From assembly GCA_965230895.1 (NCBI GenBank), contig OZ246394.1, positions 1,377,887 through 1,441,886 of the forward strand: a stretch of DNA of 64,000 nt. Direction: 5' to 3'. Below, one piece after another: positions 15,890 to 18,800 of the stretch. This DNA comes from an uncultured Gammaproteobacteria bacterium. Its GTDB lineage: Bacteria; Patescibacteriota; Microgenomatia; Levybacterales; UBA12049. The translations under genes were made by a program, and so were the position numbers. The notes under the pieces were generated by a model. The model worked only from the letters and a program-made list of their open reading frames with translations. It searched no databases and was not told the origin of the DNA. Position 1 is the first letter of the stretch. Each line of letters opens with the position of its first letter.

Positions 15890-18800
15890 TAATTTACAAT
15901 TAATGCCAACAACGGATGCCTTGGAGATTTTGACCGAGGAAAGACGCAGACGGCGGCGATACTCGTCGGGGAGGTGCCATCAACCTTTGATCCGGCGGTT
16001 TCTGAATGGGGAAACCTACTTGTCTCTGACAAGTGCCCCTATGTGAAGTTAATTCCGCAAGGAGTTATATTAGCGTATGGGTGGGTACGGCGTGAACTGA
16101 AACATCTTAGTAACGCCAGGAATATAAATCATATGAGATTCCGTTAGTAGCGGTGAGCGAAAGCGGAACAGGCTAAACCACGTTAGTGGGGTTGCAGGGC
16201 AGACGACATTCGATTAAACATTTCTAGCAGAAGGTTCCGGAATGGACCGCCAAAGAACGTGAAAGCCGTGTACGCGAAAGGAATGTTTACGATAGTTTGT
16301 ACCTAAGTACCATGAAGCACGATAAACTTTGTGGGAATCTGGGTCGACCACGATCCAAGCCTAAATATCAAAATCTACCGATAGTGAACTAGTACCGTGA
16401 GGGAAAGGTGAAAAGCACCCCGGGAGGGGGATGAAATAGAACTGAAATTGTTGGCTAACAAGCAGACAGGGTCCTGATTTATCAGGATGATGTCGTGCCT
16501 ATTGAAGAATGAGCCGGTGAGTTTATGATTGTTGCGATAGTTTAACCAACGACGTTGGGAAGACAGAGTGAAAGCGAGCCCTAACTGGGCTACCATAGTA
16601 GCAGTCATTAAACCCGAAACTGGGTGAGCTAACCTTGAGCAGGGTGAGTCTCGAGTAATATCGAGAGGAGGCCCGAACCCGTGTCCGTAGCAATGGGCTG
16701 GGATGACTTGAGGTTAGGGGCAACATGCCAAACGAACCCAGAGATAGCTGGTTCTCCCCGAAATATATTAAGGTATAGCGCTATGTATAACCCGTGGGGT
16801 AGAGCACTGAATGGATCATGGGGGGGCAACTTCTCATATCCAAACAAACTCCGAATACACGGTCTTTAGCATAGTAGTCAGACTTGTCGGGCTAAGCTGA
16901 TGAGTCAAAAGGGAAACAGCCCAGACTCCCAATTAAGGCCTCTAAATAGAAGCTAAGTTTTTAAGGAAGTCATGATCCAGAGACACCCAGGAGGTTGGCT
17001 TAGAAGCAGCCACCCTTTAAAGATAGCGTAACAGCTCACTGGCGGATGGATTGTGGCGCCGAAAATGTATCGAGGATTAAGTTTCTTGCCGAAATTGGAG
17101 ACTGTATAATGAGCGATCATTATATTTTGGTAGGGGAGCGTTCTGTTTGCAGTGAAGTTGAACTGTAAAGTTTGGTGGAGCGGACAGAAGTGAGAATGCC
17201 GGCATGAGTAACGTAATGCAGATGAGATATCTGCACACCGAAAGCCCAAGGTTTCCTCCGCAATGTAAATCAGCGGAGGGTGAGTCGGCCCTAAGAACCT
17301 TCCTCGTTAAAGGGGATTAGTTCGATGGACGAGTCGTTAACATTCGACTACAATTTATGCGTATTGTAAGGTGGTGACGGAATTGGAAGACTTGAGCCCG
17401 TTACGGCGGGTCTAAGCAGTTAGACAGAGATAGTTGGCAAATCCGCTATTTTGTTTATTCGAGCTGCGATAGAGAGTTCCCCGAAAGGGGGATAATTCAA
17501 TCTTTTTCAGTTCCCAGGAAAAGCCTCATTATACTTATCGTAAGATACAGTAAAACGCGTATATTACCGTACCGCAATCCGACACAGGTGGGCAGGTCGA
17601 GTAGACTAAGGTGATCGGGAGACAGAGGATTAAGGAACTCGGCAAAAAAGCTAGGCGTAACCTTTGGGAGATGCCTCGCCATTACAATTCGTGATGGCCA
17701 CAGCAAAAGTTTACTTTGCAACTGTTTATCTAAAACACAGGTCCCTGCAAAACTGAAAAGTAACGTATAGGGGCTGACACCTGCCCAGTGCTGGTAAGTT
17801 AAAAATCTCGGGTGAAGTTCGCAAGAATCAGCCTAGGATTTAAGCTCCAGTAAACGGCAGCAGTAACTATAACTGTTCTATGGTAGCGAAATTCCTTGTC
17901 GGGCAAGTTCCGACCCGCACGAAAGGTAGAATGACAAAGTAACTGTCTTAATCCTTTACCCGGTGAAATTGAGATGGCTGTGAAGACGCGGCCTAGGTAT
18001 ACATGGACAAAAAGACCCCGGGAGCTTTACTGTAGCTTGGCATTTGCAAGCTTACTCTAATTGTTTAGAATAGGAGGGAGATTCGTCATCAGTGAAATAC
18101 CTCTCTTTGGAATGAGTGAGCATAACTCCGACCCGCATAAAAATACGGGCGGGGGACAGTGTCTGGTGGGCAGTTTTACTGGGGAGGTAGGCTCCTACAA
18201 CGCAACGGAGCCGCACAAAGGTTGGCTAACTCCGGATGGAAATCGGAGTGATAGCGCAAAAGCATAAGCCAGCTTGACTGCGAGACCCACAAGTCGAGCA
18301 GGTACGAAAGTAGGTTTTAGTGATCCTGTGATGCATAGTGGTATGCACACAGCTTAACGGATAAAAGCTACCCCGGGGATAACAGGCTGATCGCATCCAA
18401 GCGTCCACAGCGACGATGCGGTTTGGCACCTTAACTACACATTGGGGCGCCCAGAGAGTAATCTCTGAAGCTTGATTATCCAAAAACGCACGATAGAGGT
18501 GCGTGTGGATAAGAAATACTAGCTAAAATCGGTGGACACCATTAACCCGAACAATTAATGGCCAATACCGAGGGAAGCCCGCCTTATGGCGAGGCCCCGT
18601 ATCGACTCATCTGTTTACAGATGGAGGTAAGTTCATATCGCAAGATAAATTTATAACTTACCTAAAAGGCTAGCTCCTCTTACCAAAAGAGGATGAAGGT
18701 ATAGTCAGTGCACATAGTAATATGTGATTCGACAGCGATGTCGGCTCATCACATCCTGGGGCTGGAGAAGGTCCCAAGGGTCCGGCTGTTCGCCGGTTAA

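Follow-up and report, generated by a model that had tools for sequence, protein, structure and literature searches.

The 23S rRNA gene and its insertion

The 23S rRNA gene analysed here is split within its peptidyl-transferase loop, which raises the question of what kind of element the insertion is and whether it can be removed from the rRNA. Rfam model RF02541 identifies a full-length bacterial LSU rRNA at positions 15889-19139 on the + strand (2268.8 bits, model positions 1-2925), and no second 23S gene is present within the window (i.e. the whole 64,000-nt stretch of DNA that was analysed). The gene spans 3251 nt as compared to the 2925 positions of the model, and because 2947 nt remain once the 304 nt of the insert are subtracted, other large insertions are absent and the gene is interrupted only once. 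As read from the sequence, the insert occupies exactly positions 18432-18735 (all features described below lie on the + strand), begins with U and ends with G. It is preceded by GGCACCU at positions 18425-18431, which corresponds to residues 2494-2500 in the numbering of E. coli K-12 rrlH, and it is followed at position 18736 by CGAUGUCGGCUC, whose first C is residue 2501. The insertion point is thus U2500|C2501, with U18431 as the 5’ splice-site U. A different E. coli record (a 2811-nt 23S annotation that places this U at 2407) was dropped as a numbering reference in favor of K-12 rrlH. The boundaries are fixed and cannot be slid, because the U that ends exon 1 differs from the G that ends the insert, and the U that starts the insert differs from the C that starts exon 2. 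The original prediction of a 304-nt, ORF-less insert directly after the U2500 equivalent is therefore borne out in its position, length and coding content, the longest sense ORF being 32 aa.

The uninterrupted gene is also represented in sequence data. The 50-nt junction created by removing the insert occurs exactly in 52 metagenome contigs, this clade’s own helix-89 sequence among them, and the 23S sequence spliced in silico aligns to that of an intron-less relative (L167) in a single gap-free alignment covering positions 3-2947 at 90.8% identity. In a local LSU alignment by Infernal, the gap (309 nt) falls within the loop of helix 89, a few bases further upstream; since the exact junction matches set the true boundary, this placement is an alignment artefact. 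The 23S gene is 88% identical to those of Ca. Levybacteria/Levyibacteriota, and from its sequence a CPR assignment of the host is plausible.

Classification of the insert

The insert is very probably a group I intron of subgroup IA (IA3-like, with P7.1 and P7.2) located at the L2500 site, in which a homing-endonuclease gene has been lost or was never present. An Rfam scan had been proposed as a check, and its outcome is divided: the Intron_gpI model (RF00028) aligns from end to end with positions 18422-18727 (model positions 1-253 of 253, E=8.5e-9 in a search of 551 nt), but its score of 40.0 bits lies below the curated gathering score of 50, so that a default Rfam scan omits the intron. Two long stretches that the model lacks, P2.1 and P7.1/P7.2, account for the shortfall. 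The assignment of positions 18432-18735 to a 304-nt group I intron without an ORF also draws on a predicted fold that is far more stable than those of shuffled sequences (MFE z=-7.3), as well as on 77% identity to the L2500 intron of another genome (L057). Membership in subgroup IA follows from the presence of P7.1/P7.2 besides the core helices P2-P9, and the IA3 label reflects the insertion site (archaeal LSU/2500 introns are IA3) and the architecture rather than subtype-model scoring. Two other identities were ruled out: models of group II introns gave no match up to E=10 in positions 18300-18850, and a protein-coding insert is incompatible with sense ORFs of at most 32 aa.

Guide sequence and splice sites

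The putative internal guide sequence, ACAUUGGGGCGCC, is 13 nt long and is located at positions 18439-18451, where it starts 8 nt and ends 20 nt into the intron. P1 is formed by its 3’ part together with the 5’ exon, and P10 by its 5’ part together with the 3’ exon. The P1 hairpin (18425-18451) is found in the Rfam alignment, in the fold and in the pair listing; it joins GGC-CCUUAA (18425-34) to UUGGGG-GCC (18442-51) through the pairs 18425-27/18449-51 and 18429-34/18442-47, and places a U18431·G18445 wobble at the 5’ splice site. P1 (helix 1, 8 pairs counted) is 93.3% paired over 13 sequences. It contains one mismatch, A18428xC18448, a position that is occupied by an A-U pair in most family members (GGGGUGC in 72 of 89). 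P10 is formed by ACAUUG (18439-44) and CGAUGU (18736-41), the latter being the first six bases of the 3’ exon (E. coli 2501-2506), which are conserved across the family. Its 6 bp are all canonical or G·U and are contiguous with P1. The motif GGGGYGY is present within the first 60 nt of 89/101 homologous introns, 61 of which also retain 6 contiguous P10 pairs. The final intron nucleotide, G18735, is the omega-G at the 3’ splice site, and the last base is likewise a G in 75/101 homologues. In the predicted fold, the intron tail CGACA is able to pair with UGUCG in the 3’ exon and thereby compete with P10. The hairpin that results, CGACA-G|CGA-UGUCG, is conserved and contains the 3’ splice site inside its GCGA loop.

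The boundary nucleotides that had been read as a group I hallmark, a U ending the 5’ exon and a G ending the insert, are thus present, with U18431 in the P1 wobble and G18735 as the omega-G. The fold prediction suggested for a P1 pairing with CACCU does reveal a helix between guide and exon; however, the guide is formed by positions 18439-18451, and not by the AGGUG about 60 nt into the insert. That motif (18497-18501) sits at the apex of the peripheral hairpin P2.1, and it was dropped as a guide candidate.

Core and peripheral helices

The MFE fold of the insert holds P1, P2, P2.1, P3-P6, P7.1, P7.2, P8 and P9; P7 is absent from it because it is the pseudoknot partner of P3. P2 (18452-18467) is a 6-bp helix that is closed by a GUAA (GNRA) loop, is 96% paired and shows compensatory changes at 5/6 pairs, and a GNRA-capped P2 is found in 89/101 introns. 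It is followed by P2.1 (18476-18512), which appears in both the MFE and centroid folds and is less well supported by the alignment counts (53-84% paired), MAFFT having aligned this region poorly. The 5’ strand of P3 (18519-18524) and its partner (18668-18673) are 100% paired, with double changes such as C-G to U-A at 3/6 pairs. P4 (18529-34/18566-71) and P5 (18539-45/18555-61) are separated by the junctions J4/5 (GACA) and J5/4 (CCAA), and this domain (18529-18571) is defined by covariation and the P4/P5 portion of the Rfam alignment; among 13 sequences P4 is 100% paired with one covarying pair, and P5 is 94% paired with 5/7 pairs covarying. The P6/P6a hairpin (18572-18598), placed by the fold and alignment counts, is short in this copy.

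The 5’ strand of P7 (18602-18607) was assigned from alignment counts and consists of U18602, a bulged C18603 and G18604-A-C-U18607, which pair with positions 18703-18707; G18604-C18706 is presumed to be the guanosine-binding pair. The four GACU/AGUC pairs are invariant, although the 3’ strand was fixed by the pattern used to collect homologues. The extension pair U18602-A18707, which is separated from them by the bulge, shows covariation with no exceptions across 102 introns (the present one and its 101 homologues), occurring as G-C in 44, A-U in 42, U-A in 14 and G·U in 1, always with one bulged nucleotide. Between P7 and the 3’ strand of P3 lie the subgroup-IA hairpins (18608-18663) seen in the MFE fold: P7.1 (18608-13/18618-23), with double changes at 6/6 pairs in 13 sequences, and P7.2 (18625-33/18655-63, tip 18636-39/18644-47), with double changes at 7/9. 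This stretch constitutes a 53-nt insertion in the Rfam alignment. The 3’ strand of P3 (18668-18673), identified by pairing and covariation, leads into the 7-bp P8 (18675-18693), whose 5 basal pairs are 100% paired and include 3 that covary. Positions 18694-18707 contain J8/7 (UGAAGGUAU) and the 3’ strand of P7 (AGUC plus A18707); this segment matches UgAAGAUAUAGUC, where the Rfam consensus is most highly conserved, and is invariant in the homologue alignment. Finally, P9 (18711-18726) is a 6-bp helix with a GUAA (GNRA) loop that is 93.5% paired and covaries at 5/6 pairs, and its GNRA-capped form is present in 91/101 introns. A P9.0 pairing of CA18733-34 with UG18709-10 was rejected for lack of covariation support, as the J7/9 bases vary by eye in the homologue alignment while the tail stays CGACAG.

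Covariation was counted on a MAFFT alignment of 13 homologues using a hand-drawn structure. With the P3/P7 pseudoknot included, this P1-P9 structure leaves 83.5% of cells paired, as compared to 37-46% when the partners are slid, and double changes occur in 52/93 pairs, as compared to 22-30 in the slid controls. Its covariation score of 0.346 (~0.10 in the controls) was reached by 0/500 shuffles. RNAalifold, applied to 13 homologues, detects compensatory changes in 27/54 pairs. P3, P4, P5, P8 and P9 are 93-100% paired, whereas pairing in P2.1, P6a, P7.1 and P7.2 is probably under-counted as a result of misalignment. The homologues were gathered with a pattern that fixed J8/7, the P7 3’ strand and the 3’ exon, so the conservation of these parts is partly by construction. 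The P1 guide and P7 core, which the original prediction could not verify by eye, are both present and covarying, and its group-I-intron-like reading gains support from the full-length RF00028 alignment, P1, P10, the omega-G and the covarying P3-P9 core.

Proposed splicing mechanism and alternatives

Judging from its sequence features, the insert is likely to be spliced, and established group I chemistry suggests how this could occur. In the 23S precursor, P1 would arise when the guide at positions 18439-18451 pairs with the final bases of the 5’ exon, and it would offer the U18431·G18445 wobble to a catalytic core made up of two domains, P4-P6 and P3-P9. The bond 3’ of U18431 could then be attacked by a free guanosine occupying the P7 site (G18604-C18706, adjoining the bulged C18603). 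Subsequently, the omega-G18735 would enter the guanosine site while P10 (18439-44/18736-41) aligns the 3’ exon, and the 3’-OH of U18431 would attack the bond 3’ of G18735. This would join U2500 to C2501 and restore the peptidyl-transferase loop.

It is possible, though the less probable case, that the insert is a group I intron that is not autonomous, and that it splices efficiently in the cell only with the help of a protein, for instance a host RNA chaperone or a LAGLIDADG protein of maturase type acting in trans. Protein dependence is common among organellar group I introns, and this copy might need a cofactor because it has no ORF of its own, while one third of the family encode LAGLIDADG_2 in P6; the A·C mismatch in P1 and the 3’ tail hairpin that competes with P10 point in the same direction. 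Against such dependence, no part of the ribozyme core is missing and its structure is clearly under selection, and the conserved GNRA loops on P2 and P9 suggest a self-sufficient tertiary fold. Moreover, going by the titles of refs 27 and 29 in PMC11270868, the bacterial 23S group I introns that have been tested self-splice. A role beyond that of a selfish element is conceivable but, in our view, improbable. The organism has few ribosome-biogenesis factors and carries its intron in the peptidyl-transferase loop, where the intron could help folding or act as a checkpoint of assembly, holding the catalytic centre in an inactive state until a late stage of 50S assembly, with the tail hairpin timing exon ligation. 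That introns in CPR rRNA may aid folding has been proposed in print (PMC12641178).

Two further explanations dispense with splicing by the insert. It is very unlikely that the insert is a decayed, splicing-dead relic, either within a 23S pseudogene or retained in the ribosome as an expansion segment. The score under the Rfam gathering threshold would fit decay, and loss of the endonuclease gene is the stage that precedes intron loss in the homing cycle, but all core helices are intact, the catalytic junctions agree with the consensus, and homologues that are 23-30% apart maintain pairing by compensatory changes, which indicates ongoing selection on the RNA fold. The remainder of the 23S gene, the only one of the window, agrees with its model from end to end, and a 304-nt structured insert in the single-stranded peptidyl-transferase loop would be hard to square with function. 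Slighter still is the chance that the insert is an IVS that RNase III cuts out without ligation to yield a fragmented 23S rRNA. Such IVSs occur in bacterial 23S genes, including those of CPR bacteria (PMC11270868); however, the known IVS sites are helix tips (23IS2, 23IS4; PMC11270868) rather than the peptidyl-transferase loop, neither the MFE nor the centroid fold joins the ends of the insert in a long stem of the kind that RNase III requires, and the insert contains a complete group I core.

The L2500 intron family and related systems

An intron with the same J8/7-P7 motif is found at the same 23S site in at least 120 species genomes, mostly of Patescibacteria. The homologous introns closest to this one differ from it by 23-30%, and the site is empty in relatives whose 23S genes are 90-91% identical. 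The original prediction had singled out the insert as small and lacking a homing-endonuclease ORF, which is true of it (no such ORF is present, the longest sense ORF being the one of 32 aa) but not unusual, as 64 of the 102 two-boundary inserts recovered are 230-552 nt long. Long homologues of 687-917 nt account for 36 of the 101 extracted, and in 35 of these 36, P6 contains a sense ORF that encodes 156-243 aa. In these relatives of ~690-920 nt the ORF follows the P4 3’ strand and precedes the P7 5’ strand, and the three P6 ORFs that were tested are LAGLIDADG_2 proteins (E=1e-36 to 1e-41). An endonuclease gene of this type is thus found in P6 of about a third of the family and is absent from the 304-nt copy, which without the ORF is unable to home on its own. 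We infer that the L2500 family spreads through homing mediated by LAGLIDADG_2 and that the 304-nt copy represents its ORF-less state. As a further ORF-less member of a large and patchily distributed family, it fits a homing cycle in which an intron is gained, then loses its endonuclease and is finally lost itself.

In CPR 23S genes, ORF-less group I introns near the peptidyl-transferase centre are already documented, and the insert is a real feature of this known kind. The survey by Tsurumaki et al. (2024, J Bacteriol, PMC11270868) counted 222 group I introns without an ORF and 211 with one in the 23S genes of CPR bacteria; they cluster round the peptidyl-transferase centre and are missing from transcripts, and the numbered sites 23IS9-11 of that study lie between 1952 and 2593. 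Those introns (see also Brown et al. 2015, as cited there) share with the present one the host group, the gene, the clustering in domain V and the Rfam model, and likewise occur in ORF-less and LAGLIDADG forms. However, LAGLIDADG_1 predominates in that survey at 1917-1952 and 2593-2657, whereas the L2500 relatives identified here carry LAGLIDADG_2. A literature search for group I introns by the site name “L2500” found no paper, but LSU/2500 is a known group I site, and the archaeal introns at LSU/2500 and LSU/2593 are of type IA3 (Nawrocki et al. 2018, NAR, PMC6125680). The archaeal LSU/2500 introns share their site with the insert but are ~800 nt long (PMC6125680), a length from which they probably carry an ORF, whereas the insert has 304 nt and an extra P2.1. 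Its architecture matches that of cyanobacterial L2593 introns, in which P2 and P5 are both short and P7.1/P7.2 form an extension of 55-65 nt (Haugen et al. 2007, PMC1995217). Other group I introns in domains IV/V of 23S are L1917 and L1951 of Coxiella burnetii and L1931 of Thermotoga, which are inserted at different sites and, as far as the references listed in PMC11270868 indicate, are reported to self-splice.

The insert leaves current knowledge of group I introns and of CPR ribosomes unchanged, and it matters in practice mainly to annotators: the genome’s 23S gene has to be treated as two exons, and if the 304 nt are left in place, rRNA alignment, phylogeny and length filters will mishandle the gene. 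Beyond the Patescibacteria, a Coxiella endosymbiont (L029) carries an L2500 relative of 832 nt whose longest ORF is only 68 aa.

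Location and boundaries of the insert

Rfam models identify one full-length bacterial 23S rRNA gene on the + strand of the window (15889-19139), which is 3251 nt long as compared to the 2925 positions of the model. The gene lies between an upstream tRNA-Ala(UGC) gene (15584-15659; tRNA detected by Rfam, identity assigned by ARAGORN) and a downstream 5S rRNA gene (19215-19324, Rfam), and protein-size ORFs are found upstream of this cluster up to 15390. Rfam detected no 16S rRNA gene in the whole 64-kb window, so the 16S gene is unlinked from the 23S-5S pair. The 5' exon ends in GGCACCU (18425-18431), which corresponds to residues 2494-2500 in E. 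coli K-12 rrlH, and the 3' exon CGAUGUCGGCUC starts at 18736; the insert therefore spans 18432-18735 and is exactly 304 nt in length, with U as its first base and G as its last. Its location between U2500 and C2501 (K-12 rrlH numbering) agrees with the original prediction, as does its lack of a coding region, the longest sense ORF being 32 aa. The boundary is unshiftable in both directions and is confirmed independently by an exact, uninterrupted 50-mer (the clade's own helix-89 sequence joined to the 3' exon) that is present in 52 metagenome contigs, and by alignment of the in silico spliced 23S rRNA to that of one of these contigs (locus L167), which is gap-free over positions 3-2947 (90.8% identity). 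A local Infernal LSU alignment placed a 309-nt gap in the helix-89 loop (window 18400-18740) and matched the P9/tail region of the intron to the 3' strand of that helix. As a result, intron boundaries obtained by automatic rRNA annotation would be off by ~25 nt.

The insert has the architecture of a group I intron

A default Rfam scan reported no intron. In a permissive Rfam scan of 18300-18850, the Intron_gpI model aligned over its whole length (positions 1-253) to 18422-18727 with a score of 40 bits (E=8.5e-9; curated cut-off 50), whereas the group II models gave zero matches. P2.1 and P7.1/P7.2 are read by the model as two long insertions, which lower the score. The fold of 18420-18750 is far more stable than those of shuffled sequences (z=-7.3) and contains P1, P2, P2.1, P3, P4, P5, P6, P7.1, P7.2, P8 and P9; P7 is missing from it because this helix is pseudoknotted with P3, and it was placed by hand.

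P1 is formed by 18425-27 with 18449-51 and 18429-34 with 18442-47, contains one A·C mismatch, and positions a U18431·G18445 wobble at the 5' splice site. P10 (18439-44 with 18736-41) comprises six pairs that immediately adjoin P1, such that a single guide sequence, ACAUUGGGGCGCC (18439-18451), aligns both exons. The AGGUG originally proposed as the guide (18497-18501) instead lies inside P2.1, a peripheral hairpin (18476-512). The core consists of P3 (18519-24 with 18668-73), P4 (18529-34 with 18566-71), P5 (18539-45 with 18555-61), P6/P6a (18572-98), P7 (U18602 and 18604-07 with 18703-07, C18603 being bulged), P8 (18675-93) and J8/7 (18694-702), and it is accompanied by P7.1 (18608-23), P7.2 (18625-63) and the GUAA-capped hairpins P2 (18452-67) and P9 (18711-26). 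The omega-G is residue 18735. With P1, P10, omega-G and the two core domains defined after PMC10964413, every structural element of the group was found, and the group I interpretation held in kind; the insert is very probably a group I intron that is predicted to be removed by splicing.

By analogy with the family, a guanosine bound in P7 would attack after U18431, omega-G18735 would then take its place while P10 positions the 3' exon, and the 5' exon would attack after G18735 to yield GGCACCU-CGAUGUC, the native peptidyl-transferase loop. Both this chemistry and any protein help are inferred; the RNA elements needed at each step are present, and we consider it unlikely that splicing requires a protein cofactor.

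The bases CGACA in the intron tail (18730-34) can pair with UGUCG of the 3' exon (18739-43; residues 2504-2508 in E. coli). In the MFE fold the two form a hairpin (18730-18743), with omega-G and the 3' splice site in its GCGA loop. The predicted hairpin would compete with P10. Of the 75 omega-G homologues among the matches listed, 24 have the tail CGACAG and 6 have UGACAG.

Covariation among homologous introns

An alignment of 13 introns, including that of the window, was analyzed with RNAalifold, which returned 54 pairs with compensatory changes in 27. The hand-drawn structure (93 pairs, P7 included as a pseudoknot) was compared with controls in which the 3' partners were slid by 1-3 columns. 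Across the 13 introns, 83.5% of its cells are paired as compared to 37-46% in the controls, double changes occur in 52 of the 93 pairs (22-30 in the controls), and the covariation score is 0.346 versus ~0.10, a value attained by none of 500 shuffles. Pairing in these introns is 100% in P3, P4, the P6 base and P8, and 94-96% in P2, P5 and P9. The four central pairs of P7 do not vary, which is partly a consequence of the search pattern, as it prescribed the sequence of one strand. That pattern did not cover the pair extending P7 beyond the single bulged nucleotide; over the window's intron and 101 homologues, this pair is G-C 44 times, A-U 42 times, U-A 14 times and G·U once, without exception. 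Guanosine-binding sites classically consist of a G-C pair beside a bulged nucleotide, as in Tetrahymena (A263/G264-C311).

Among the matches listed, 89 of the 101 homologues have the exon-binding motif GGGGYGY within their first 60 nt, and 61 of these 89 form six contiguous P10 pairs; P2 and P9 are GNRA-capped in 89/101 and 91/101, respectively. In the 13 introns the basal C-G C-G pairs of P8 and P5 are invariant, which together with these loops suggests L2-P8 and L9-P5 tertiary contacts.

Relatives, host and known systems

The closest introns among the matches listed share 70-77% full-length identity with that of the window (L057, 77%; L088, 73%; L043, 70%). The most similar 23S exons among these matches are those of L057 (94.8%), L112 (88.7%), L088 from Ca. 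Levybacteria (88.4%) and L109 from Levyibacteriota (88.1%), so the host is most likely a Microgenomates-group Patescibacterium, and intron similarity roughly tracks host similarity. Relatives equally close in 23S sequence have no intron (L167, 90.8%; L143, 90.1%; L174, 90.0%); presence of the intron in this clade is thus optional. L057 and L043 are labelled 'uncultured Gammaproteobacteria' and L112 'Candidatus Acidiferrales'; their 23S sequences are 82-95% identical to that of the window, which is itself 88% identical to Levybacteria/Levyibacteriota 23S, and these MAG contigs look wrongly labelled or mis-binned.

Group I introns have been observed before at LSU/2500, and those of archaea belong to subtype IA3 (PMC6125680). 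The bacterial L2593 introns likewise have a short P2, a short P5 and a P7.1/P7.2 extension (PMC1995217). Insertions interrupt 82% of 23S genes in CPR bacteria, and the Rfam group I model matches 45% of these insertions. The set includes 222 ORF-less group I introns, the introns group around the peptidyl-transferase centre, and such inserts are reported missing from transcripts (PMC11270868). The window's intron, ORF-less and at the peptidyl-transferase loop, resembles this set: the feature is real but ordinary, and belongs to a well-populated class already described. A role for CPR rRNA introns as folding aids has been floated (PMC12641178). We consider it very unlikely that the present intron helps the catalytic centre to fold or serves there as an assembly checkpoint; if it does, the conserved tail/3'-exon hairpin could be the timing switch.

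Distribution of introns at E. coli position 2500

One genome per GTDB species was scanned for the J8/7-P7 motif followed by the 3' exon within 8-38 nt, which identified at least 120 loci. Among the matches listed, Patescibacteria are the majority, and other labels include Gammaproteobacteria (with a Coxiella endosymbiont), Actinomycetes, Acidobacteriota, Planctomycetes, Verrucomicrobia and further groups. For 102 of the loci listed, the boundary with each exon was located; there, 64 inserts measure 230-552 nt, 36 measure 687-917 nt, and the remaining two 772 and 2532 nt. A sense ORF of 156-243 aa is present in 35 of the 36 long inserts listed, positioned between the P4 3' strand and P7, i.e. 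in P6, and all three ORFs tested match LAGLIDADG_2 endonucleases (E 1e-36 to 1e-41). The intron of the Coxiella endosymbiont of Ornithodoros amblus is of endonuclease-form length (832 nt) with a longest sense ORF of 68 aa, and probably contains a decaying homing-endonuclease gene. In a Patescibacteria contig (DASVCV010000004.1), the nearest GGCACCU upstream of the 3' exon is 2532 nt away, which points either to a composite or far longer insertion or to a mis-picked 5' boundary.

The final base is A instead of G in 26 of 101 introns among the matches listed (including L004, L011, L013, L014, L016, L017, L034, L037, L040 and L048), with tails such as ...AUGUA|CGAUGUC, ...AAUAUA| and ...AAGUA|. 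Their boundary is unshiftable because the exons are invariant, and all 26 share the J8/7 sequence GAAGAUAUAGUC and a normal P7 that is followed by 28-29 nt. These introns seem to form an omega-A subfamily. One Coxiella intron is known to have a non-canonical omega, according to the title of a reference cited in PMC11270868, but a whole clade of omega-A introns might deserve attention. Unlike these 26, the window's own intron has an omega-G.
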